Source of the DNA: Halarcobacter sp.
Lineage (GTDB): Bacteria > Campylobacterota > Campylobacteria > Campylobacterales > Arcobacteraceae
Reading direction: 5' to 3'
Length of the DNA: 64,000 nt
Assembly (NCBI GenBank): GCA_048571215.1
Contig: CP182352.1
Span: 2,112,001-2,176,000 of the forward strand
Position numbers and translations under genes: made by a program. Every line of letters starts with the position of its first letter. Positions within the stretch are counted from its first letter, which is position 1. Positions 25,553 to 39,594 of this stretch are shown here, piece by piece. The notes below the pieces were generated by a model that ran no database searches, had not been told where the DNA came from, and was given only the letters and a program-made list of their open reading frames with translations.

Positions 25553-26206
25553 TTATTGAGGTTTGAATGACTTTGTTGTCTTACATACATGAGGGAAAAG
25601 ACACTTATCGCAATCAGGATTTAAAGCTTTGCAAGTATATCTTCCAAACAAAACCATAGCTTGATGAAAAATATGTAAATCCCCTTTTAGTTTTTTAACT
25701 AAATGCTCTTCTGTTTGCTCAACTGTTTTACCATCACTAAGACCTAACCTATGTGATACTCTAAATACGTGTGTATCTACAGCCATAAGATTCGCACCCT
25801 CAGCTTCTATCATAAATACATTAGCGGTTTTATTTCCTACACCTGCAAGTTTTATTAACTGTTTTGTATCATGGGGAATATCTCCACCATGAAGATTTAC
25901 TACACTTTGAGCCATTTTAATAATATTTTTTGATTTATTATTAAAAAAAGAGCAAGATTTTAACAACTCTTTCACATCTTCAAGTGAAGCTTCTGCTAAA
26001 TCAAAAGGTGTAGGATATCTTTCAAATAAAGCAGGAGTTATTATATTTACTCTTTTATCAGTACATTGAGCAGATAAGATAATCGCAATAAGTAACTCAA
26101 AATCATTTCTATAATTTAATTCAGTTACAGCATCTGAATATTTTTCAACAAAGGCCTCTTTTATAATCTGTATATCTTCTTTTGTAGCTTTTTTTATTCT
26201 TGCCAA
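25553..26206 (-). CDS. nth: Endonuclease III
   Basis: LSAQCTDKRVN, HhH motif GVGNKTANV, VDTHVFRV, C-x6-C-x2-C-x5-C Fe-S motif. Confidence 0.97.
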   Translation of the reverse strand: MARIKKATKEDIQIIKEAFVEKYSDAVTELNYRNDFELLIAIILSAQCTDKRVNIITPALFERYPTPFDLAEASLEDVKELLKSCSFFNNKSKNIIKMAQSVVNLHGGDIPHDTKQLIKLAGVGNKTANVFMIEAEGANLMAVDTHVFRVSHRLGLSDGKTVEQTEEHLVKKLKGDLHIFHQAMVLFGRYTCKALNPDCDKCLFPHVCKTTKSFKPQ

Positions 26207-26299
26207 AATTGTATTCCTATTTTTTTAATAAAATTGTAGTGAATTTTTATTAAGAAAATATTAGATATAATTTTATTTCAAATTACTTTAAGGTAAGAA

Positions 26300-26560
26300 A
26301 TGTTTATAAAAAGAAATGAAGAGTTACTATCATCAGAAATGGATGATGAATTAGTTATGATGAATCTTGAATCTAATAATTATTTTGGATTAAATAAAGT
26401 TGGGAAAGATATTTGGGAATTTCTTGAAGAAGAACAAACACTAAATAACTTATGTGAAAAGCTTACAAATAAATATGATGTATCTTTAGAACAATGCAAA
26501 GAAGATATTACTCCTTTTATTGATAAACTAAAAGAGTTAAATATTATTGAAGTATCTTAA
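26300..26560 (+). CDS. Lasso peptide RiPP recognition element (PqqD family, B1)
   Basis: 86 aa; DDELVMMNLESNNYFGLNKVGKDIWEFL...YDVSLEQCKEDI; directly upstream of B2. Confidence 0.92.
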   Translation: MFIKRNEELLSSEMDDELVMMNLESNNYFGLNKVGKDIWEFLEEEQTLNNLCEKLTNKYDVSLEQCKEDITPFIDKLKELNIIEVS

Positions 26561-27005
26561 CTCCTTAATCAATTTTTTAAAAAGACCAAAGAGGGAAATG
26601 CTTTTAATTGTAAAATCATTTCTTTTACTTTTGCAAATTAAATTTCAACTAAAAAAATATAATTTTAATACACTTGCAAAAAAATATAATTTAATCTTAC
26701 AAAAAGATGATATTATCCATAAAGATATAGATATAAAAAAAGTAAAAACAATTGGCTGGGCAGTTGAAAGGTCAGCTTTACTTTTACCTTGGGATGGTTT
26801 ATGTCTTGTAAAAGCCTTAGCAGCACAACAATTACTTAAAAAACAAAACTTATCGGGAACAATTTTTATGGGTGTGAAAAAAGATAAAGAAGGAAAAGAA
26901 TTAGAAGCTCATGCCTGGCTTAAATATAATGATACTTTTTTAACTGGACGAGCTGGACATAAAGAGTTTACTGTTGTCTCAAGATTTACTTGGAGTATAA
27001 ATTAA
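26547..27005 (+). CDS. Lasso peptide leader peptidase (B2, transglutaminase-like)
   Basis: PW..LCLVKALA (catalytic Cys), GVKK, LEAHAWL (His). Confidence 0.92.
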   Translation: MKYLNSLINFLKRPKREMLLIVKSFLLLLQIKFQLKKYNFNTLAKKYNLILQKDDIIHKDIDIKKVKTIGWAVERSALLLPWDGLCLVKALAAQQLLKKQNLSGTIFMGVKKDKEGKELEAHAWLKYNDTFLTGRAGHKEFTVVSRFTWSIN

Positions 27006-27006
27006 A

Positions 27007-28827
27007 ATGAGTAGTTTTAAAGATAAATATATTGATTTTAAAGCACAAATAAAATACTTTCCAAAAACAATAAAACTAATATGGAATGCTTCAAGATTTC
27101 TAATATTTGCTTGGGCGAGTTTACTAATATTTTTAGGAACACTTCCCGCTTTGCAAATATATTTAATAAAACCTCTAGTTGATACATTATCAAATATAGA
27201 AAAAGAAAATATAGATTTAATAATAAATGATTTATACTTGCCAATTATAGTTTTAGCATTAACTTTACTTTTAACTCCAATATTAACATCTTTATTATCC
27301 TATGTTAGAAATATACAAGCCCAAAAGGTGCAAAACTCTATTAGAAAAAAGATTCAAAAAAAAGCAGTATCTTTAGATATGAAACACTTTGAAGATAGTG
27401 AGTATTATAATAAACTACATAGAGCTCATATTGATGCTATTAGTAAACCCATTGCCCTATTAGAAAATATAGGAACCTTTTTTCAAAATATATTAACTTT
27501 TCTTGCTATATTAATTATCTTACTTCCAATTGCTTGGTGGTTCCCTTTAGTTTTAATAGTATCAATCATCCCGTCACTAATCATCTCATTAAAATTTATT
27601 TTAAAACTACATAATCATAGAATAAAAACTACGAAAGATGAAAGAAAATTAAACTATTTAGATTTTCTAATGACAAATAATGAATCAGCTGCAGAAGTTA
27701 GAACATTTAATCTTGAACATTATTTTAAAAAAATTTATTGGAAATTAAAACACTCTATTCAAAGTGAATATTTTTCAATTTTAAAATCCCAATTAAAGCT
27801 TGAAACGATTAGTTCACTTTTCTCTTTTTTTGTTGTTATTATTGTAATGTTATTTGTTGTAAATCAAACATTAAATGGTAATATTTCAATTGGTTCTTTA
27901 GTTATGTATTATTTTGCCTTTACTCAAGGACAAAAGGTCTTAAAAACACTATTTTCAAATATTAGTGAACTATATAAAAATATTATGTTTATTGAAAACC
28001 TATTTGAGTTTTTATCTATTGAGAATTTAAAAATCAAATATGATAAAAAACTAAAGAAAAATGTACCATGTAAAATAGAAATTAGTAATATATCTTTTAA
28101 ATATCCAAAAGCAAATAAATATGCTATTGAAAACTTATCAATGAATTTAGAACCAAATCAAATAACTGCAATAGTTGGAACAAATGGAAGTGGTAAAAGT
28201 ACACTAATAAAACTGCTTAATGCTTTTTACTACTCTGAGACGGGAAGTATAAAAATAAATGATGAAGATATAAGAGATATTGATCCAAAATCCATTAGAA
28301 AAAATATAACAATTCTTTTTCAAAATTTTATAAAATATAATCTAAAAGTTAAAGAGAATATAACTTTAGCAGATACTACAAAAAAAATATCAAAAGATAA
28401 ACTTGATGATATTAGTTCAATAGTAGGAATCAATGAAGTTATTAAAAAACTTCCAAATGAATATGAAACAGTTTTAGGAAGATGGTTTGGTGGAGTTGAA
28501 CTAAGCGGTGGGGAATGGCAAAAAGTAGCACTTGCTAGAGCTTATTTAAAAGATTCGAGTATATTAATACTAGATGAACCAACAAGTGCTATGGACTCTT
28601 GGGCAGAAGCTAAATGGCTAGAAAAATTTAAAATACTGTGCAAAGATAAAACTGCTTTAATAGTAACCCATAGATTTACCACTGCAAAACATGCAGATAT
28701 AATTCATGTAATGAAAGATGGTAAAATAGTTGAATCAGGTAGTCATGAAGAATTAATCAAACAAAATAGTCTTTATGCAACATCTTGGAATAAACAAATA
28801 AAAGAGTTTAAGGAAAAAGATGAGTGA
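27007..28827 (+). CDS. ABC exporter (fused permease-ATPase), lasso D protein
   Basis: TM domain plus GTNGSGKS, LSGGEWQKVALARA, LILDEPT. Confidence 0.92.
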   Translation: MSSFKDKYIDFKAQIKYFPKTIKLIWNASRFLIFAWASLLIFLGTLPALQIYLIKPLVDTLSNIEKENIDLIINDLYLPIIVLALTLLLTPILTSLLSYVRNIQAQKVQNSIRKKIQKKAVSLDMKHFEDSEYYNKLHRAHIDAISKPIALLENIGTFFQNILTFLAILIILLPIAWWFPLVLIVSIIPSLIISLKFILKLHNHRIKTTKDERKLNYLDFLMTNNESAAEVRTFNLEHYFKKIYWKLKHSIQSEYFSILKSQLKLETISSLFSFFVVIIVMLFVVNQTLNGNISIGSLVMYYFAFTQGQKVLKTLFSNISELYKNIMFIENLFEFLSIENLKIKYDKKLKKNVPCKIEISNISFKYPKANKYAIENLSMNLEPNQITAIVGTNGSGKSTLIKLLNAFYYSETGSIKINDEDIRDIDPKSIRKNITILFQNFIKYNLKVKENITLADTTKKISKDKLDDISSIVGINEVIKKLPNEYETVLGRWFGGVELSGGEWQKVALARAYLKDSSILILDEPTSAMDSWAEAKWLEKFKILCKDKTALIVTHRFTTAKHADIIHVMKDGKIVESGSHEELIKQNSLYATSWNKQIKEFKEKDE

Positions 28828-29608
28828 TTTTACATATAGTCTAAAAAAGTTTATATCATTTTTCTTTGAACCTTTAAGTATTTTATTTATACTTTTAACT
28901 ATTATTCTTTTTATATCACTATGTAAAGGGTATAAACAACTTATCCCTCTGATAATTTTTTCAATCTTATGGCTTTTTATTTCAAGTTATCATCCTGTAT
29001 CAGAATACTTTATAAAAGAACTTGAATCCTCTTTAAAACCTTTTCAAGTAGATAAAAAAGATGTTAAGTATATTGTTGTACTTGGAGGAGGGGCAAGGTC
29101 AACTACTTCTGATATACCCAATGCTCAGAAGCTTAAGTATAGTGGATATCAAAGATTTCATGAGAGTATGAGACTATTAAAAGCATATCCAAAATCAAAA
29201 GTTATATTCTTAGGTCCTAAATTAAAAAATAGAACTTATAGTGAAGCTTCTATTTATAAAGAGCTTGCACTAAATGCAAAAGTTGATAATAATAGAATAA
29301 TCATAGTTGAAGATGCAAAAGATACAATATCAGAAGCTAAAAGTGTAAAACAAATAGTTAATAGTGATTCTTTGGTTCTAATTACAACTGCTTTTCATAT
29401 GAAAAGAGCCTCAAAGATATTTAAAAAATATGATATGAATCCTTTATTAGCCCCTGTAAGTTTTGCTAAAACAGGCAAATATAAATGGAGTAAAATTCTA
29501 TCTATTAGTTCAATGTATAGAACTAACATATTACTTCATGAGTATATTGGTCAGTTATGGATAAAAATAAAATACTTTTTTATAAGGGATGATAGATTAA
29601 ATGATTGA
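28820..29608 (+). CDS. DUF218/YdcF (ElyC/SanA-like) membrane-anchored protein
   Basis: Two N-terminal TM helices, IVVLGGG, DTISEA, LITTAFHMKRA, HEYIG. Confidence 0.85.
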   Translation: MSDFTYSLKKFISFFFEPLSILFILLTIILFISLCKGYKQLIPLIIFSILWLFISSYHPVSEYFIKELESSLKPFQVDKKDVKYIVVLGGGARSTTSDIPNAQKLKYSGYQRFHESMRLLKAYPKSKVIFLGPKLKNRTYSEASIYKELALNAKVDNNRIIIVEDAKDTISEAKSVKQIVNSDSLVLITTAFHMKRASKIFKKYDMNPLLAPVSFAKTGKYKWSKILSISSMYRTNILLHEYIGQLWIKIKYFFIRDDRLND

Positions 29609-30815
29609 TAATATCAGTGATAAAATTAAAATAAATCTTCTAAAAATGTTAAATTATAATATAAAGATTGATGATGAATTAAAATCTTTATCTAGTGATG
29701 AGATTGAAGAGATTATATTCTTATGTAAAAGACATCATATAAAAGAGTATTTATATTATAACCTAAAGAAAAATGATTTATTATCACTTCTTTCACAAGA
29801 GCAAATAAAAGATTTAGAAGACTCTTTTAAACAAAAAACTTTTTATAATATGTCTTTACTTGCAGAACTAAAAAATATATCAAAAGAGTTTAAAAAAGAT
29901 AATATACCACTAATTGCACTAAAAGGTCTACATCTTATACAAGATATTTACCCTCATATTGCATTAAGATATTCAAGAGATTTGGATATATTAGTTCCCA
30001 AAAATAAAGGTAAAGCTTCATATGAAACTTCAAAAAGATTAGATTACTACTGTGATAAAAAACTAACAGAATATGACTACTCTTTTAAATATCATCACCA
30101 TTTGCATCAGTTTTTTAACAGTAAAAAGGGATTTATACTTGAACTTCATGCTCACTTAAGTGAACAAATTCATATAAATACCAATAGGCTATGGCAAAAT
30201 TCAAAGGAAGAAAAACTTGATTTAGAAGATTTGATTATTCATTTATCTATTCATATGTCTTATTCAGATATATTTAAAAATGATTTAAGGCATTACTTAG
30301 ATCTTTATGTAGTATTAGAAGAGTTAAAAGATGATATAAATTGGAAAATAGTAAAACAAAGAGCAGAAGATGATAAGTGTTTAGAAGGTATTTATTTAAT
30401 GTTTAAAATCATTGGAATACTTTTTTCTATAACTTTACCAAAAGAGGTAGAAAGTTTTTATTCATATACTAGTCAAAGAGAACAAATAGTAAATAATGCA
30501 ATAGATTTTATGTGGCTTTATGATAAATCTTCACAAGATTATGTATTTTATAGAGCACAAAATATTAGTATTACACAAAGAAACTCTTTATTTAAAAAAG
30601 TATTATCAAGGATATTCATTCCAAAACATGAATTAGCATATATATATTCACAAGAAAAAAACTCTAAGAAGATATATATCTATTATTTTATAAGATTCTA
30701 TGATTTAATAAAAAGACACACATTTAAAATAATTGGTATTAATACAAATGACTCAAAGAAAAAGTTTGTTGAAAAAACTTTATTTGTATATAACTATTTA
30801 AACAAAGGTAAGTAA
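29601..30815 (+). CDS. Nucleotidyltransferase (NTP_transf_5-like; PadeN/PsmN-type lasso tailoring enzyme)
   Basis: IPLIALKG, YP...LRYSRDLDILV, LELH, DLIIHLSIH; lasso cluster context. Confidence 0.85.
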   Translation: MIDNISDKIKINLLKMLNYNIKIDDELKSLSSDEIEEIIFLCKRHHIKEYLYYNLKKNDLLSLLSQEQIKDLEDSFKQKTFYNMSLLAELKNISKEFKKDNIPLIALKGLHLIQDIYPHIALRYSRDLDILVPKNKGKASYETSKRLDYYCDKKLTEYDYSFKYHHHLHQFFNSKKGFILELHAHLSEQIHINTNRLWQNSKEEKLDLEDLIIHLSIHMSYSDIFKNDLRHYLDLYVVLEELKDDINWKIVKQRAEDDKCLEGIYLMFKIIGILFSITLPKEVESFYSYTSQREQIVNNAIDFMWLYDKSSQDYVFYRAQNISITQRNSLFKKVLSRIFIPKHELAYIYSQEKNSKKIYIYYFIRFYDLIKRHTFKIIGINTNDSKKKFVEKTLFVYNYLNKGK

Positions 30816-30820
30816 TAAAC

Positions 30821-32150
30821 GAGACCGTTCAAAAATCTGTGTCAAGTCACCTAAAGTAACAAATCCATACTTGTTACAACTCTAAATAATTATCCAATCT
30901 CCCTTCGAAAAATATAGCAAGTTGGGAGATTGTTAAACTCCAATTATGCACTGGCTGAGTCCATTTTACTTTTGCATTTAATATTCCCATATACAACAAT
31001 TTTAAAAGTGAATTCTCATTAGGGAAAGCTCCTTTTGTTTTGGTTAATTTTCTAAATTGCCTATGTACAGATTCAATAATATTTGTAGTGTACATAATCT
31101 TTCTTATCTCTTTTGGATATTTAAAATAATAAGATAAATTCTCCCATTTATTTTGCCAAGATTGAAGTACTATGGGATATCTTTTCCCCCATTTTTCATC
31201 TAGTTTTAAAAGCTCATCTTCTGCAAGTTCTTTTGTTGTTGCTTGATAAACAAGTTTTAAATCTCTCATAAACTCTTTTTGGTCTTTAGAAGCTACATAC
31301 TTCAATGAATTACGAATTTGATGTACAACACAAAGTTGTACTTCGGTATTTGGATATATTGTTTTAATAGCTTCAGGAAAGCCTTTAAGACCATCTACTG
31401 ATGCAATTAGTATATCTTCTAATCCTCTATTATTTAAATCAGTAAGAACACTAAGCCAGAAGTTTGCTCCTTCACTTTGGGATAAATATAATCCTAATAT
31501 ATCTTTTTTACCATCAATTCCCATCCCTAAAACTGTGTAAACTGCTTTACTCACATACTTCCCACCATCTTTTATTTTATAATGTATCGCATCAAGCCAT
31601 ACAAATGGATAAATAGCTTCTAAAGGTCTACTTTGCCAAGCTTTTACCTTATCTATAATTTTATCTGTAATAGTGCTTATTGTTGCACTTGATAATTGTA
31701 TTTGATATATCTCTTCAATATGTTTTATAATATCTCTATAGCTTAATCCTAAGCCATACATAGATAATATCTTTTCTTCTATTTCATTAGACATTGTTGT
31801 TTGGTTTTTCTTTACAAGTTGTGGTTCAAAAGAACCTGTTCTATCTCTTGGAGTATTCAATTCAAAGGAACCACTTGTTGATTTTATTGTTTTAGAGCTT
31901 TTACCATTCTTTCTATTTTTATTTCCTGCAAATACATCTTGAGTTATATGAGAATCTAATTCTGCTTCTAAAGCAGCTTCAACTAATTGTTTTACTAATG
32001 GAGCAAGTACTCCATCTTTACCATTGATATTTTTACCTGCAAGTAAATCTTGTACAGCTTCATTAAAATCAAATTGTTTTTTCTTTTCCATCTATATCAA
32101 TCCTTATAATATTTATTATATCAGACTGACACAGATTTTCTAACACTCCC
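30821..32150 (-). mobile_element. IS256-family insertion sequence, 1330 bp
   Basis: Terminal inverted repeats GAGACCGTTCAAAAATCTGTGTCA (30821-30844) and reverse complement GGGAGTGTTAGAAAATCTGTGTCA (32127-32150), 19/24 identical. 8-bp direct repeat TAATAAAC at 30813-30820 and 32151-32158. Confidence 0.95.
30874..32091 (-). CDS. IS256-family (Mutator) DDE transposase
   Basis: PRDRTGSFEP, VWLDA, VDGLKGF, QLCVVHQIRN, TTNIIES. Confidence 0.97.
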   Translation of the reverse strand: MEKKKQFDFNEAVQDLLAGKNINGKDGVLAPLVKQLVEAALEAELDSHITQDVFAGNKNRKNGKSSKTIKSTSGSFELNTPRDRTGSFEPQLVKKNQTTMSNEIEEKILSMYGLGLSYRDIIKHIEEIYQIQLSSATISTITDKIIDKVKAWQSRPLEAIYPFVWLDAIHYKIKDGGKYVSKAVYTVLGMGIDGKKDILGLYLSQSEGANFWLSVLTDLNNRGLEDILIASVDGLKGFPEAIKTIYPNTEVQLCVVHQIRNSLKYVASKDQKEFMRDLKLVYQATTKELAEDELLKLDEKWGKRYPIVLQSWQNKWENLSYYFKYPKEIRKIMYTTNIIESVHRQFRKLTKTKGAFPNENSLLKLLYMGILNAKVKWTQPVHNWSLTISQLAIFFEGRLDNYLEL

Positions 32151-32197
32151 TAATAAACTCATTATATATATAAATTGCTATGTTCATTACTATATTT

Positions 32198-33817
32198 TTA
32201 CTCAAATAATTTATATTTTTTTACTAAGCTCATACCTGAAGAAGTTAAAAATGTACTACATTCTTCTTTTATTATAAAAATATCTTTTTCATCTAAATAT
32301 TTATTATAATTATTTATTTTTCCCTCTCTAACTCTAAGACTTTCTTTATTTATGGTGTCTAAATCATATCCTGCTACACCTTTTTCAATTTCAACTTTCT
32401 GCATATTTTCAAAACTTCCATTATTTATTGCTTCAATTATAATTTTATCATCAATAGGTAATTCTAAAAAAAATATCAATTTTTTTATATTTGTATAAAT
32501 ATTTAAATGCATATTTTCATATGTAATAAAAAAATTTGTATTATCACTATTATCAAACAGACTATAATTATTTAATAATTCACAATACTGTTTTAAAACA
32601 TTTGTATTTTTTATAAAATCACACAATTTTCCCTCAAAAATTTTCAAGCGATTTTTTTGTTGAAAATAATCTGATACAATAATTTCAAAAATATTTCTTA
32701 ACAAAATTATTTTAGGGAAGCTATTTATCCCTTCACTTATATTTTTATGACTTGATATGATTAATGGAAACTTACTATTTTCATAAAAATCATATCCTAA
32801 AATACCCTTTATATTTTCATATTCTTCATTTGGCATTAAAGAAAACATATTTTTCAAATTTAAATCTATATTTAAATTAAATATCTTATTAATATATGAT
32901 GCAATAATAAATCTTAACCAAGTCCTTCCTGATTTTGGAATCGAATACAAATAAAATATTTTTTTCCTTTTTAAAATTGAATTGAAAAAATAGTTTTTAT
33001 GATTACTTATTTTTTTTGTAATTTTTGTTTTTTCTTCACTTAAATTAGGCACAAGTTTAAAATTTTTAAAACCAATATCAGATAGTTTTTTTACGTCAAA
33101 AAATACATGACCTAAATCTAATCTAGGGATTAAATCTTTTGAGCATGCTTGCATTGAAGAAGTTATAGTATTATTATTTTGATGAGATATTGTATTATAA
33201 CAAATTCTAGCCGTACAATTATAGGCACAATTAGCGTTTGCAAAAAGTGTAATTCTATCTTTGTTAGGTAATGAAATTAGAAAATCATCATCATCATTTT
33301 TATCCATTGGAATAACAATATTATCATAAATAGTTAATGCATTTATAACTTTTTCAAGAGTATTTAAATTTTTAATTAAACTTGCTTTTATCTTATACTT
33401 AGGAAAGTCTTTCCTTATTTGCTTTGCAAGTTCGTCATTTACACAAACTACAGAATTTCCTTTTTTATGATGCTTTTTAAGAAATTCTAAACTTTCTTTA
33501 TAAGTATTTATATCAAAAGAATGATTAGTTAAAGTCAATGAGACACCTATTGAGTTATCCATTAAAGTTTGAAGATGAAAAGAATCCAATGAATATTTTT
33601 TCTGATATATTCTTCCTCCATATAGTTTACTATATTCAGTTGTTGAACCAAAAATACTTTCAATACTTTTAAAAGGTATATACATATAAAATATTCTTAA
33701 ATAGTCCAAGATATTCATATCTTTTTCAATTCCTCTAGAAGATAGAGTAAATTTAAGGCCTTCAATATTAAAACTATTTTTTACGTCAGATGGTTTAATT
33801 AAATTATTGTTTTTCAT
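32198..33817 (-). CDS. Fusion protein: N-terminal peptidase-U32-like (putative Fe-S) domain plus C-terminal PAPS-dependent sulfotransferase
   Basis: N-half LFANANCAYNCTARICYNTISH...QACSK and GFKNFKL. C-half YSIPKSGRTWLRFII (5'-PSB), LLRNIFEIIVS, ITYE, SFENMQ, LRVREG. The sulfotransferase call is strong; the U32 call is weaker. Confidence 0.7.
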   Translation of the reverse strand: MKNNNLIKPSDVKNSFNIEGLKFTLSSRGIEKDMNILDYLRIFYMYIPFKSIESIFGSTTEYSKLYGGRIYQKKYSLDSFHLQTLMDNSIGVSLTLTNHSFDINTYKESLEFLKKHHKKGNSVVCVNDELAKQIRKDFPKYKIKASLIKNLNTLEKVINALTIYDNIVIPMDKNDDDDFLISLPNKDRITLFANANCAYNCTARICYNTISHQNNNTITSSMQACSKDLIPRLDLGHVFFDVKKLSDIGFKNFKLVPNLSEEKTKITKKISNHKNYFFNSILKRKKIFYLYSIPKSGRTWLRFIIASYINKIFNLNIDLNLKNMFSLMPNEEYENIKGILGYDFYENSKFPLIISSHKNISEGINSFPKIILLRNIFEIIVSDYFQQKNRLKIFEGKLCDFIKNTNVLKQYCELLNNYSLFDNSDNTNFFITYENMHLNIYTNIKKLIFFLELPIDDKIIIEAINNGSFENMQKVEIEKGVAGYDLDTINKESLRVREGKINNYNKYLDEKDIFIIKEECSTFLTSSGMSLVKKYKLFE

Positions 33818-33895
33818 ATAGTATAATATTTTATTTTTACTAATAAAAAGTTTTAAAAAAGCTTCTTAAAATAAATTCATAAAAAAAGGTAGCAT

Positions 33896-34807
33896 TTGTT
33901 TCACTATAAAGCTTTTAATTTACATCTATCAGTCCCATTTGAATGTCCAGAATTAATTGAAATAGATAAAAAAGAAAATGAGTTAGATTTAATATCAGTT
34001 TATTATACTTCATCTTTACCTGAAAAACTAGACAACTTTACCAACTCAGGTCCAACTTTTACTTCAAATAAAAATCAATTTTTATTAAATACAAAAGCAG
34101 ATGTAAAGTTTTTAGTAATAAATGGAAATAAAATATATATTGATTTAGGTGAAGATTGTACAATTGAACAGATGAAACTTTTATTTTTTAGTTCTGTCAT
34201 GGCAGCCTTATTTATGCAAAAGAAGATGTTAGTTTTTCATGCGAGTACCATAAATATAAATGATAAAGCTGTACTTTTTTGTGGAGATTCAGGTCTTGGT
34301 AAATCAACAATTTCAGAAACTTTAGTTAAACAAGGTTATAAAAAACTATCGGATGACATGAGCGTAATATATTATAATAACGAAAAACAAAAAATTATGT
34401 GCATACCATCCTATCCACAATCAAAACTTTGGGAAGAAAGTATAAACTTATTAAATATAGATACTAATGGATTAAAACATGTTCATAATAGATTAAATAA
34501 ATATTTAGTAACAAATAAAGAAAGTTTTTATCATAAAGAACTTCCTGTAGAAAAAATATATATATTATCCATTAATAATAAACAAAATGTATTATTAAAC
34601 GATATAGATAAGTTAAAAGCTATTTATGAAATTGAAAATCAGACTTTTAGAAAAAAATTTTATATAAAAGATGAATATCGAAAGAACTATTTTAATTTAT
34701 TCGTAAAAATAGTTGAACAAGCTACTATTAAACACCTATCAAGACCCTATAAAACGAACTCTATATCTGAAATTAAAAATATATTAAACAATGATTTAAA
34801 TGGATAA
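33896..34807 (+). CDS. HPr-kinase-like lasso peptide kinase (PadeK-type)
   Basis: LVFHAS (His), GDSGLGKST (P-loop), LSDD, PSYPQSKLW. Confidence 0.88.
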   Translation: MFHYKAFNLHLSVPFECPELIEIDKKENELDLISVYYTSSLPEKLDNFTNSGPTFTSNKNQFLLNTKADVKFLVINGNKIYIDLGEDCTIEQMKLLFFSSVMAALFMQKKMLVFHASTININDKAVLFCGDSGLGKSTISETLVKQGYKKLSDDMSVIYYNNEKQKIMCIPSYPQSKLWEESINLLNIDTNGLKHVHNRLNKYLVTNKESFYHKELPVEKIYILSINNKQNVLLNDIDKLKAIYEIENQTFRKKFYIKDEYRKNYFNLFVKIVEQATIKHLSRPYKTNSISEIKNILNNDLNG

Positions 34808-35639
34808 TGGTATTTATTGGATAGTATCATATCCTAAAAGTGGCAATACTTGGTGTAGGATGATTTTAAATAATTATATTGCAAACTTAAATGAACCTTT
34901 AAATATAAATCATTTAAATACAAAATTCATATCTTCAAATAGAAAATTTTTTGATGAGATAATTGGTTTATCATCATCAGATATGAGTGAAGATGAGATA
35001 AAACTATATCAACCTGAAGTTTATAAAGAGTTAATAAAAAACACAAATGAAGATTTATTTATAAAAGTACATGATGCATATATTTTTAATAAAGATAATA
35101 AACCTATATTTCCAGAAGAAATTACTAAAGGGGTAATATACATAGTTAGAAACCCTTTAGATGTTGTAGTTTCATATGCAAATCATATGGATGAAACTAT
35201 AGAAAATACAATTAAAATTCTAAATAATAAAACACATACTTTGGATATTCAATTTGATGAATTAAATATAAGATTACCACAATTTTTAGGAGATTGGAGT
35301 TTTAATGTAAATTCATGGTTAGATTCAAAATTACCTATACATTTAATTAAATATGAAGATATGCTTGACAATACATTTAGTACCTTTTATAAAACATTAG
35401 AATTTTTAGGATTTGATATAGATACAAAAAGATTACAAAAAGCAATAGATTTTTCCTCTTTTAAAGAGTTACAAAAACAGGAAAAAATACATGGTTTTAT
35501 AGAAAAGTCACCTAAAACTAAAAAGTTTTTTAATAGTGGTAAAAAAGATATTTTTAAGGAACATTTAACAGAAAAACAAATAAAATATATTGTATACAAC
35601 AATTTTCATTTAATGAAAAAATTAAATTATATTCATTAA
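34800..35639 (+). CDS. PAPS-dependent sulfotransferase (Sulfotransfer_1)
   Basis: IYWIVSYPKSGNTW, KVH, YIVRNPLDVVVS, IKYEDM, FFNSG. Confidence 0.9.
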   Translation: MDNGIYWIVSYPKSGNTWCRMILNNYIANLNEPLNINHLNTKFISSNRKFFDEIIGLSSSDMSEDEIKLYQPEVYKELIKNTNEDLFIKVHDAYIFNKDNKPIFPEEITKGVIYIVRNPLDVVVSYANHMDETIENTIKILNNKTHTLDIQFDELNIRLPQFLGDWSFNVNSWLDSKLPIHLIKYEDMLDNTFSTFYKTLEFLGFDIDTKRLQKAIDFSSFKELQKQEKIHGFIEKSPKTKKFFNSGKKDIFKEHLTEKQIKYIVYNNFHLMKKLNYIH

Positions 35640-35677
35640 AATGTGATGTATGCACTGCTTTATAAATGGAGGAAAAT

Positions 35678-35821
35678 ATGGAAAAGATTGAATTAGATGA
35701 AAATCATTTACAAGCTGAAAATAAAGAAACTTGGGAAATACCTGCAATAGAAGTTTTAGATACAGATGAAACAAAGGTTGGTGCTCCTGGTCCTTTTGAT
35801 GGAAGCGGGCCATACTCTTAA
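35678..35821 (+). CDS. Lasso peptide precursor (47 aa; not in ORF track)
   Basis: GGAGG at 35668-35672. Manual translation MEKIELDENHLQAENKETWEIPAIEVLDTDETK-VGAPGPFDGSGPYS: WxxPxI leader motif, Thr at -2, Asp at core position 8, C-terminal Ser; lies 16 bp before the cyclase. Confidence 0.92.
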   Translation: MEKIELDENHLQAENKETWEIPAIEVLDTDETKVGAPGPFDGSGPYS

Positions 35822-35837
35822 TCTAGATTAAGTTATT

Positions 35838-37616
35838 TTGAATAGTTTTTTATGTGAATATAAGAAAAATTTTCTTTACCCATTTTCTAATAATGATAAT
35901 ATTGACACTTTCGAGTATAAAAATATAACTTGTACTATAGATAATAAAGATTCTACATATCTAGATATAAAAAATAGTTTTTTTTATATACTTATAGGTG
36001 ATATTTATAATATAGATGAACTTTATATATTAGAAAATCTAAACAAAGAAACTACAAGTAAGTTTGAACTTATCGAAACTTTATATCAAAAATATGATAA
36101 AAATATATTTGATATGTTGATAGGAGATTGGTTTTTACTTATTTATAATAGTGTAATTGATAGCTTAATATTTGCACAAAGCCATCTAGGTTTCTGTGCA
36201 ATATACTACTATATGGATGATAATAAACTTTTCTTTTCAAATACTCTTGAAAAACTTTTAAATATAGATGAGATTCCTAAAAAAGTCAATTATAATTATA
36301 TTAAAAATATACAACTATTTTCCATACCAAACCAATATAATGAAACCTCGTTTTTACATATCAAAACTTTAAATCCTGGGAAATATATGTATATAGATAA
36401 AAACAACTTTATACATAAAAAATATTGGTATCCTGAAAATCTAGAAAAGAATAAATCTATCAAAAAAGAAGAAGCTATAATTAAAGTAAAAGAGATTTTC
36501 ACTGAAGCTATAAGAGCTAGAATAAAAGATAAAACTATAGTAAGTTCAATGCTTAGTGGTGGATTAGATAGTAGCAGTGTTTCTATTATATCTTCAATAT
36601 TACTAAAGGAAAAAAATAAAAAATTAAATTGCTTTAGTCATATTCCAGCTTTTGATGTTGATAAAAATAAAATACCAAAAAATAGAATATCAAGTGAAGA
36701 AAAGTTAATATTAAAAATATTAGATAAATATCCAAATATAAAAGAAAACTTTGTAGATTCAAAGCAATACACAATACTTGATGGTATAGATGAGTATATA
36801 AATACTTTCAATGAAATACCACTAAATCTTAATGCTTATTGGTTGATAGATATTTGTAAAAAAGCTAAAGAATTAAATTCAGATATTTTACTGACAGGAG
36901 ATTTAGGAAATTATACAATCTCTTATAAAGGAGCTAAAAATAGTTTAAATATATTTAAATATTTTAAATTGTTTGGTTTGAAACATACCCTTAAAGAAAA
37001 AGTGATAAAAAAGTTAATATTCTACAAATACAAAACTATTTATACTATAAATTCTACTTTTATAAAAGAAAGCTATATAAATAAAAGATATATAAATAGA
37101 TATAAATTATTTAAGTTTAGACTTATCAAAATGAATTATTTAAATAATGGAAAGTTTATGTTAGCTGGGCATTATCAAAGAGCAAAGATTATGGGTGGAT
37201 TTGTATCACAGCTTCAATTAAATATAAGTGACCCAAGCTCCGACAAAGAACTTATTGAGTTTCTTTATCAATTGCCACAGGAGTTCTTTTTCAGTAAAAA
37301 AGGGGAAGAAAAAGATATAATAAAAAACTTTATGAAAGATTTAACGCCAGATAAAGTCTTGTTTCAAAAGAAAAGAGGACTACAAGCTTCTGATATTTTT
37401 GAACGTATATTATTGGATGTTGATAAAATAGAAAATATAATAAAAAACTTTAAAACAGATGATTTAGATTTTGAACTTTTCAATAAAACAAAAATGTTAG
37501 AAGACCTAGAAAGATTAAGAAAAAAAGAATTACCTTTAGAATCATTACATTCTTTAGTAAAAACTGTAGCCCAAATGAAATTTATAAATTATGTTAAAGA
37601 TAAATATAAAGTCTAA
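35838..37616 (+). CDS. Lasso cyclase (asparagine-synthetase-like, C protein)
   Basis: Degenerate N-terminal glutaminase-like domain, SSMLSGGLDSSSV PP-loop, LLTGDLGN, DPSSDKELIEF, KRGLQA. Confidence 0.9.
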   Translation: MNSFLCEYKKNFLYPFSNNDNIDTFEYKNITCTIDNKDSTYLDIKNSFFYILIGDIYNIDELYILENLNKETTSKFELIETLYQKYDKNIFDMLIGDWFLLIYNSVIDSLIFAQSHLGFCAIYYYMDDNKLFFSNTLEKLLNIDEIPKKVNYNYIKNIQLFSIPNQYNETSFLHIKTLNPGKYMYIDKNNFIHKKYWYPENLEKNKSIKKEEAIIKVKEIFTEAIRARIKDKTIVSSMLSGGLDSSSVSIISSILLKEKNKKLNCFSHIPAFDVDKNKIPKNRISSEEKLILKILDKYPNIKENFVDSKQYTILDGIDEYINTFNEIPLNLNAYWLIDICKKAKELNSDILLTGDLGNYTISYKGAKNSLNIFKYFKLFGLKHTLKEKVIKKLIFYKYKTIYTINSTFIKESYINKRYINRYKLFKFRLIKMNYLNNGKFMLAGHYQRAKIMGGFVSQLQLNISDPSSDKELIEFLYQLPQEFFFSKKGEEKDIIKNFMKDLTPDKVLFQKKRGLQASDIFERILLDVDKIENIIKNFKTDDLDFELFNKTKMLEDLERLRKKELPLESLHSLVKTVAQMKFINYVKDKYKV

Positions 37617-37620
37617 TATT

Positions 37621-39594
37621 TTAAATCTTCTTAATCTTTTCTATTTCATCTCTTAATCTAATAGCCTCTTCAAAGTTCAAGTCTTTTGCAGCTTTTGTCA
37701 TCTTTTTATTTAACTCTATTAAGATTTTTTTACGCTCTGCTGCTGGCATTTTTTCTATTTTATTTTTCTTCCATGCCAAATCATCATACTCTTCTAATTT
37801 TAGACTTTCCTCTAATCTTCTTATTGTAGAGGTTGGTGTTATATTATGCTCTTTATTGTATGCTTCTTGTATCTCTCTTCTTTTATTTGTCAAATCAATT
37901 GCATACTGCATAGAGTCTGTGATTCTTTTTGCAAAAAGTATTACCCTACCATTTTGATTTCTTGCAGCTCTTCCCATAGTTTGAACTAAAGAGGTTCTAC
38001 TTCTAAGAAAACCTTCTTTATCTGCATCAAGTATAGCTACTAGTGAAGTTTCTGGGATATCAAGTCCCTCCCTTAGAAGGTTAATTCCAACTAAAACATC
38101 AAACTCACCAAGTCTTAACTCTCTTATGATTTGGTTTCTTTCAATAGCATCTATATCACTATGCATATATTTTACTTTGATACCTAAGTCTTGATAATAT
38201 GTCGTTAACTCTTCTGCCATTTTTTTTGTAAGTACTGTTACTAAAACTCTTTCATTTTTTTCAGTGACTTTTTTTATCTCATCATGTAACTTTTCAACTT
38301 GAAACTCACTATCTATTACCTCAACAACAGGATCTAAAAGTCCAGTAGGTCGAATAATTTGTTTTGCAACAACATCACTTTTTTCTATTTCAAGTTCAGC
38401 TGGAGTTGCAGATACAAAAAGGTAGTTTGGTGCTTTTTTTATAAACTCATCAAACTTTAAAGGTCTATTATCTAAGGCACTTGGAAGTCTAAAACCATAA
38501 TCAACAAGAACCTCTTTCCTACTTCTATCAGCTGCATGCATCCCTCTAAACTGAGGAAGTGATACATGAGACTCATCAACTATAAGTAAAAAATCTTTCC
38601 CTATTTGTTCAAAATAATCCATCATAGAGTATGGGGTTTCACCAGGTTTTAAACCAGTAAGATGTCTAGCATAATTCTCAATACCCTTACACATTCCAGT
38701 ACTTTCAATCATCTCTAAATCAAACTCAACCCTTTGTTTAAGTCTTTGATACTCTACTCTTTTATCCTCTTTTTCATAATACTTTAGTCTCTCATCTAAC
38801 TCTTCTTCTATTTGTTTTACTGCTCGACCTAAATTCTCACTTGTAACAACAAAAGGATTAACTGAATAGATTATTGCTTCATCTAACTCTTTTCTTTTTT
38901 CATTTGTTAGATATTCGTGTTTAGTTATAGATTCAACCTCATCACCAAAAAACTCAACTCTAATAAACTCATCTTCATAATATGCCGGAAAGATATCTAT
39001 AACATCTCCATTTACTCTAAAATCAGCTCTATCAAAAAAACTATCATTTCTCTTATAACCCATCTCAACAAGTTTTAGTAAAAACTGTCTTTGTGAATAT
39101 TCAAAGCCCACTTCTATTCTTTGAACCATTGCTTTATATTCACTTGGATTTCCTAAACCATAGTTTGCAGAAACTGAAGCTATAACAATTACATCATCAA
39201 AACTAAGAAGTGATGCAGTTGCACTAAGTCTTAATCTTTCAAGTTCTGCATTTATAGATGAATCTTTTTCTATAAATAAATCAGTTCTTGGTATATAAGC
39301 TTCTGGTTGATAATAATCATAGTATGAGATAAAATATTCCACATGGTTGTTTGGGAAAAAAGCTTTAAATTCACTATAAAGTTGAGCTGCAAGGGTTTTA
39401 TTATGAGTCATAATAAGTGTGGGCATTTGTGTTTTTTCAATCACCTTTGCCATAGTATAGGTTTTACCTGAACCCGTTACACCCTCTAAGGTTGTATATC
39501 TATTCCCACTTAGGATAGAATCACTTATCTGTTTAATTGCAACAGGTTGATCACCTGCTGGTTTGTATTCGCTATTTACTTTAAATTTTGCCAT
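37621..39594 (-). CDS. uvrB: Excinuclease ABC subunit B
   Basis: [35 protein letters not shown]-terminal UVR domain. Confidence 0.99.

Follow-up and report, generated by a model that had tools for sequence, protein, structure and literature searches.

A candidate 14-residue, Val-initiated lasso peptide encoded beside a U32-fold/sulfotransferase fusion in Halarcobacter

A 47-residue frame in the genome of Halarcobacter sp. was read in a preliminary description as a hidden lasso precursor with a very short, Val-initiated core, which raises the question of whether it encodes a working precursor and what the genes around it would make of it. The open frame (MEKIELDENHLQAENKETWEIPAIEVLDTDETKVGAPGPFDGSGPYS; 35678..35821, + strand) lies in a window of 64,000 nucleotides of contig CP182352.1 (positions 2,112,001 to 2,176,000), the whole stretch of DNA that was analysed. 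It divides into a leader (35678-35776, +) and a core, VGAPGPFDGSGPYS (35777-35818, +), the cut-site junction at its end being WEIPAIEVLDTDETK followed by VGAPGPFDGSGPYS. A GGAGG ribosome-binding site (35668..35672, +) stands 5 nt 5′ of the ATG at 35678, and the frame, this site and the leader are real features, as first described. The frame had also been reported as absent from the ORF track; a 63-residue antisense ORF (35622-35813) is indeed present there, but the 47-residue form is a called gene in the protein collection. A longer leader from the in-frame ATG at 35666 is unlikely, because this ATG overlaps the GGAGG and is without a Shine-Dalgarno sequence of its own, leaving 35678 as the likelier start. 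Judging from the sequence, we put at roughly 0.7 the probability that the frame encodes a functional-looking lasso precursor of the paeninodin-like kinase class, belonging to a broad, uncharacterised branch with short cores.

The leader carries the motif Trp(-15)-x-x-Pro(-12) ... Thr(-2) (35732..35773, +). This is the register of PbaA, whose leader, crystallised with the RRE, is numbered with the same Trp(-15) (PMC13381572), and it upholds the paeninodin-like leader and 14-residue core proposed at the outset. From it follow a predicted eight-residue Val1-Asp8 ring and a six-residue tail, GSGPYS, in which Tyr13 is, as proposed, the sole bulky residue; the achromosin sequence offers a 14-residue precedent for this 8 + 6 layout (PMC12427821). 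Lasso precursors are recognised by Thr(-2) with Asp or Glu at core positions 7-9, here Thr(-2) and Asp8, and the RRE, leader peptidase and cyclase are all encoded locally with their catalytic residues present. Assignment to the kinase class rests on the WxxP leader with Trp(-15), the His-Lys-Asp-Asp residues of the kinase and the C-terminal Ser of the core, Ser14. Membership among the linear polyphosphorylated peptides (LPP), which have a YxxP leader, an SpI-like peptidase and no cyclase, was rejected: the leader here is WxxP, B2 and a cyclase are encoded, and there is no SpI gene among the island ORFs.

Residues 16-36 match the paeninodin precursor family NF033524 of NCBIfam with an E-value of 0.0017 and 18 bits, below the cut-off of 27. 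The strict pattern W-x2-P-x-[LIVMFA]...T...[DE]...S-stop occurs three times in the 3.6-Mb genome, two of the three adjoining lasso genes, and this rarity argues that the precursor is not a chance frame. A direct homology search with the precursor sequence returned only itself, and its Atlas neighbours (0.89-0.90) are unnamed. No substitutions over the island are listed in DNA contigs from four runs, all of one study and drawn from no more than two samples, which may be the source itself; the single-base gaps among those listed all come from one run, and none falls within the precursor. Promoter-like sites did not exceed shuffled sequences (87 versus 100.9), and folding of the precursor region was no better than that of shuffled sequence (z 0.52).

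Relatives were mined from 170 loci, of which 80 came from metagenomes through a cyclase alignment, 80 from genomes through a kinase alignment, seven from the phylum and three from the host genome. Small ORFs were retained when they contained [W/Y/F]xxP followed 12-15 residues later by Thr and one of core positions 7-10 was acidic; four of the 87 distinct candidates were dropped as chance frames, leaving 83, and in two Thr-Thr candidates the core boundary was shifted by one residue. The 83 rows are related to one another, which inflates significance in p-values, and since the miner itself demanded these Thr and acidic positions (W+12 to W+15 and 7-10), the agreement in register, including a preferred acceptor at position 8 in 39 precursors and position 9 in 38 (77 together), is partly built in. 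The core ends in Ser in 70 of the 83. Its length is at most 13 residues in 10, at most 14 in 21 and at most 15 in 32, so that 14 residues, first described as at the short extreme for lasso peptides, is not the extreme; huascopeptin has 13 residues and a Gly1-Asp7 ring, achromosin 14 with Asp at position 8 (PMC12427821), and the canucins are 14-mers (PMC9266682).

The view of Val1 as exceptional has to be given up as well. Twelve different residues occur at position 1 (A19, N16, G15, S11, K5, Y5, L3, F3, T3, M1, D1, V1), and while the single Val belongs to the studied precursor, 38 of the 83 cores begin with a residue other than G/A/S/C. Asn1 of metanodin has been shown by MS (PMC12670498), halolassin begins with Tyr, and FusC tolerates changes at position 1 (10.1101/2020.11.25.399105); a review table of 62 lasso peptides includes Leu1 and Trp1 and no Val1 (PMC12427821). 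Together with the Asn1 cores of four clade neighbours, metanodin indicates that a small first residue is not needed in this lineage. Among the lassos compared, Val1 would be new at position 1, yet an expected kind of extension. In the literature searched, mostly non-subscription, no Val1 lasso, sulfated lasso peptide or lasso peptide of this lineage was found, and large RODEO precursor datasets may hold predicted Val1 cores.

Cleavage one residue later, which had been put forward as an alternative, would yield a 13-residue peptide with a seven-residue Gly1-Asp7 ring. Gly is the commonest first residue among characterised lassos, and huascopeptin provides a precedent for both ring and length, but the later cut would place Lys at -2 and Thr at -3, and it would break the W-15 register; the exceptions to Thr(-2), as reported, are Ile, Val and Ala (PMC10368454). 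Applied to the four clade neighbours, the same shift would leave three of them with His1, Asn1 or Ala1, and in 20 of the 38 non-canonical cores position 2 is likewise not G/A/S/C. The set as a whole often has Gly at position 2, but less often after a non-canonical first residue (12/38) than after G/A/S/C (33/45), which gives no sign of a later cut. The requirement for Lys at -2 in particular makes the Gly1-Asp7 product very improbable, and the Val1-Asp8 ring is retained below. A register with Val at -2 was discarded, since its six-residue ring would lie under the 7-9 range.

The lasso cyclase C (35838..37616, +) has the Asn_synthase fold and keeps SGGLDS, G354/G357, P466 and D469. Its N-terminal domain is divergent, and it has a TTG start without a clear ribosome-binding site; it scores 151 bits on NF033535 (cut-off 525) and keeps 41 of 70 consensus positions (median 59). 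Its nearest homologue, 49% identical, keeps 39 and has the same deviations. In a FastTree phylogeny of 74 rows with SH-like support, cyclase C falls outside the Bacillota clade on a long branch (1.28), in a group of five (support 100%) whose other four members have Asn1 cores of 13-16 residues in the same register. In the wider group (support 99), 25 of 33 cores have at most 15 residues, versus 7 of 50 outside it; the branch of cyclase C is compositionally biased, and loci with two clusters are possibly mislabelled. The precursor and its machinery would work like those of paeninodin, yet form a separate branch.

The precursor belongs to an 11.4-kb island (26207..37620) between nth (25553-26206) and uvrB (37621-39594). 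In five of five congeners tested uvrB and nth are spaced by ~20-1740 bp, and this near-adjacency marks the island as an insertion. It opens on the + strand with the RRE protein B1 of PqqD type (26300..26560; NF033536, 79.7 bits versus a cut-off of 80), the leader peptidase B2 (26547..27005; NF033537, 67 bits, above cut-off; C86 and H122 kept), the ABC exporter D (27007..28827), an ElyC/DUF218 protein (28820..29608) and a PsmN-like nucleotidyltransferase of PF14907 (29601..30815; D127-x-D129 kept). The ElyC/DUF218 gene overlaps the exporter and nucleotidyltransferase genes and has no counterpart among the other mined lasso loci. On the - strand follow an IS256 element (30821..32150; transposase 30874-32091) and a gene (32198..33817) for a 539-residue fusion of an unnamed U32-fold domain (aa ~15-265) and a sulfotransferase, ST2 (aa 290-519). 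The + strand then encodes an HPr-kinase-like lasso kinase K (33896..34807; H115, K136, D153 and D154 kept) and, directly 3′ of it, a sulfotransferase of PF00685, ST1 (34800..35639), which keeps the PAPS-binding motifs PKSGNTW and RNP. Matches to the cyclase were found in 163 of 184 family genomes; those outside the host genome (best E 2.5e-23), mostly N-terminal partial matches, are taken as asparagine-synthetase-like, and B2 was therefore chosen as the lasso marker. B2 occurs in one of the 184 family genomes, namely the host genome, with none in the other 183, and lies above cut-off in 8 of 401 sampled phylum genomes, the host included.

A horizontally acquired island could also be silent or decaying, with Val1 arising by drift after the precursor had ceased to be processed. 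The long cyclase branch, the IS256 element inside the island and a decayed lasso locus in the same genome would fit such decay. Nevertheless, each of the ten island genes is full-length and keeps its catalytic residues, the IS256 element sits between convergent genes and breaks none, the nearest cyclase homologue has the same deviations as cyclase C, and the ribosome-binding site of the precursor is intact; decay is accordingly an improbable account, and we keep to a functional-looking cluster. The genome contains another 14 full, near-identical copies of IS256 as well as two partial copies, pointing to a recent expansion. The decayed locus (L031, G000:C1:604522-610107) has a B1 68% identical to that of the island, a broken B2, a nucleotidyltransferase remnant, an intact kinase and cyclase, and two precursors, one intact with a 13-residue core, NATSVNSDGSLLS, the other, near 607770, frameshifted. 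Its state indicates that lasso loci can be lost in this genome, and the B2 of the island might serve it in trans.

From the gene content, intact catalytic motifs, register and recurring architecture, a pathway can be proposed in which all chemistry is borrowed from characterised systems. B1 would bind the WxxP leader, and kinase K would phosphorylate the C-terminal Ser14 on the precursor. B2 would cut after Lys(-1), a position set by Thr(-2), and cyclase C would join the Val1 amine to the side chain of Asp8, closing the eight-residue ring around the tail; below the ring, Tyr13 and modified Ser14 would presumably serve as the lock. As in pseudomycoidin, the phosphate may receive a sugar added or enabled by the nucleotidyltransferase. 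PAPS-derived sulfate may be added at the C-terminal end by either or both of the sulfotransferases, and exporter D would export the product.

The kinase step has the closest precedent. Kinases of the paeninodin class phosphorylate the C-terminal Ser of the precursor (PMC8498205, PMC9266682), and kinase K keeps the H-K-D-D motif (PMC9266682), so that the earlier proposal of Ser14 as its target stands; by analogy, Ser14 phosphorylation is well supported. PsmN is needed for the hexose on the phosphate of pseudomycoidin, and the authors of that work proposed the sugars as a lock (PMC6993621). Without its kinase and nucleotidyltransferase, pseudomycoidin behaved as a branched cycle (PMC6993621), and the present product might likewise be cyclised but unthreaded, or threaded only while Ser14 is modified. 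The tail is rich in Gly, Ser and Pro, and the unmodified ring may therefore unthread. Among the 32 short cores an aromatic residue lies beyond the third tail position in 11 and is lacking there in 21, and seven have no large residue there at all, which would fit modification acting as a lock. The studied core, however, has Tyr13 under an eight-residue ring, and the class II lassos listed include peptides of 13-14 residues whose tails have six residues (PMC12427821). An unthreaded product is unlikely on this evidence, and a threaded peptide is still preferred.

Sulfotransferase genes in lasso clusters are known and are described as uncharacterised (PMC8498205, PMC4289311). A relative of ST1 is the next annotated gene 3′ of the kinase in 45 of 52 loci, or in 16 of 22 counting the loci not fetched with the kinase. 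The best solved relatives of ST1 are the aryl sulfotransferases Teg12/Teg14 (E 2e-12) and aryl SULT1A, and Tyr is the sulfation target in RaxX and in a sulfonated lanthipeptide (PMC11143521); both points count in favour of Tyr13. Tyr occurs in the mined core of 14 of 28 sulfotransferase loci versus 12 of 45 others, a degree of enrichment, but the 14 loci without it indicate that Tyr is not the general target, unless precursors were missed; Tyr as a universal sulfotransferase target is thus rejected. Sulfation of Tyr13 by the kinase-coupled ST1, argued from these analogues, is uncertain, and nothing in the analysis favours Ser10, the other site suggested earlier. As for the supply of PAPS, two full-length APS-kinase matches are present in the host genome.

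More unusual than the precursor is the fusion. Its U32-fold domain was modelled with a pLDDT of 95.8, and its best fold match is Mk0906 (PDB 5d88; Foldseek E 1.1e-8, TM 0.61; VIA Z 16.9, r.m.s.d. 3.7, 218 aligned, 12% identity; next Z 11.2). The predicted U32 barrel is accompanied by four Cys residues, invariant or nearly so in 84 family rows, with the spacing C-x3-C-x4-C-x18-C, and the model is consistent with membership of the U32 proteins. A profile of the family, which comprises 338 representatives at E 0.001 or better, matches a PF01136 protein at E 4.6e-11. Pfam, including PF01136, gave no match for the fused domain and only weak ones for 2 of 84 family members (best E 0.0066); no PHROGs family, PDB sequence match or phage-collection match was found, and plasmid matches to the fusion cover the sulfotransferase part only.

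Among the 401 phylum genomes the U32-fold domain is confined to the host. A further 803 genomes from three lineages gave 10 matches: seven strong, all with a sulfotransferase fused, adjacent or within ~4.4 kb, and three others, namely a weaker one in a radical-SAM/PqqD locus, a plain U32 protein and a marginal case. A sulfotransferase domain is also carried by 18 of 150 listed family representatives. The domain is not lasso-specific: a kinase-sulfotransferase pair lies beside one of the seven strong bacterial matches, and one more match lies near a lone B2. Among six viral contigs (L215-L220) the U32-fold gene lies amid sulfotransferase, APS-kinase, 2OG-oxygenase or sulfatase-like genes, and tail-fibre-like genes are often close by. 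In the two viral loci checked with Pfam, a sulfotransferase and an APS-kinase adjoin it, in one together with a 2OG oxygenase. A distant U32-fold gene near two radical-SAM/PqqD genes (L237:4088-10333) is a possible second RiPP context.

Three lasso loci contain the U32-fold domain, namely the island, a metagenome contig and the third locus of the host, whose precursor is outside the 83. All three precursors end in Tyr-Ser, versus 1 of 81 other mined precursors; this pairing is observed in very small numbers and is treated as a lead. The metagenome contig (L035:1308-14481) has the island gene set minus ElyC, the fusion included, with the core NHTNPGGTDAFIYS, and adjoins sulfate-activation genes (two APS kinases, CysN- and CysD-like genes). 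The third host locus (L032, G000:C1:762871-773025), without B2, contains PqqD, a cyclase, a kinase, a sulfotransferase and a stand-alone U32-fold gene, along with two more sulfotransferases, GT8, three tail-collar-like genes, and a GNAT-like and a hydroxylase-like gene. Its YxxP precursor ends in DGIADYS; the usual Thr register would put Asp at 12, and a later Thr would give a 14-residue core with Asp8. At many loci with kinase-class lasso machinery, tail-collar-like genes occur alongside it in runs, together with GNAT and hydroxylase-like genes (for example, L042, L059, L136, L142, L143 and L153).

Known U32 proteins (UbiU/UbiV, RlhA, TrhP) are described as Fe-S enzymes linked to O2-independent, prephenate-dependent hydroxylation (PMC10990095). 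The fusion might accordingly hydroxylate Tyr13 without O2, with an Fe-S centre and prephenate as donor, and sulfate it, while the kinase, nucleotidyltransferase and ST1 build a bulky phospho-sugar-sulfate lock on Ser14. The three of three Tyr-Ser loci and seven of seven sulfotransferase neighbours speak for Tyr13 hydroxylation, but two of these loci are closely related and the domain mostly occurs away from lasso clusters; the proposal is speculative and rather unlikely to be right as a whole. If true, the product would be a sulfated lasso peptide with Val1, and a U32-type enzyme would have a ribosomal peptide as its substrate, neither of which was found described in the literature searched.

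Taken by itself, the precursor adds modestly to known diversity, and the fusion merits more attention than Val1. A small peptide with one Tyr, one terminal Ser and an 11-kb pathway offers a clean test case for questions standing since paeninodin: the role of lasso-cluster sulfotransferases, the tolerance of cyclases for a β-branched Val1, and C-terminal modifications as a lock. Two wider groups come into view as well: an uncharacterised branch of 12-15-residue cores, and an unnamed U32-fold family associated with bacterial and phage sulfotransferases.

The closest known systems are the paeninodin and pseudomycoidin clusters (PadeA/K/B1/B2/C/D; PsmK, PsmN), which share the WxxP leader with Trp(-15)/Thr(-2), the split B1/B2, the HPr-kinase homologue with H-K-D-D, the C-terminal Ser and the nucleotidyltransferase. 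They have Ala1 rather than Val1 and cores of 23-24 residues, whereas the core here has 14, divided into an eight-residue ring and six-residue tail; the island further differs in its two sulfotransferases, one of them fused to a U32-fold domain. Huascopeptin, achromosin, the canucins, metanodin, citrulassin/lagmysin/stlassin (Leu1), fusilassin (Trp1) and halolassin resemble the predicted peptide in size range and in tolerating larger first residues; as listed in the sources, none has Val1 and none is described with a kinase-sulfotransferase set, unlike the studied cluster. RaxST, SslST (lanthipeptide) and StaL/Teg12 (glycopeptide) carry out PAPS-dependent sulfation of peptide aryl hydroxyls; the likeness of ST1 to them is distant, and at half of the lasso loci that have an ST1 relative the mined cores lack Tyr. 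With the U32 family (Mk0906, UbiU/UbiV, RlhA, TrhP) the fused domain shares a common fold and four invariant Cys residues; the substrates described for that family are quinone precursors and RNA (PMC10990095), whereas the fused domain steadily partners sulfotransferases.
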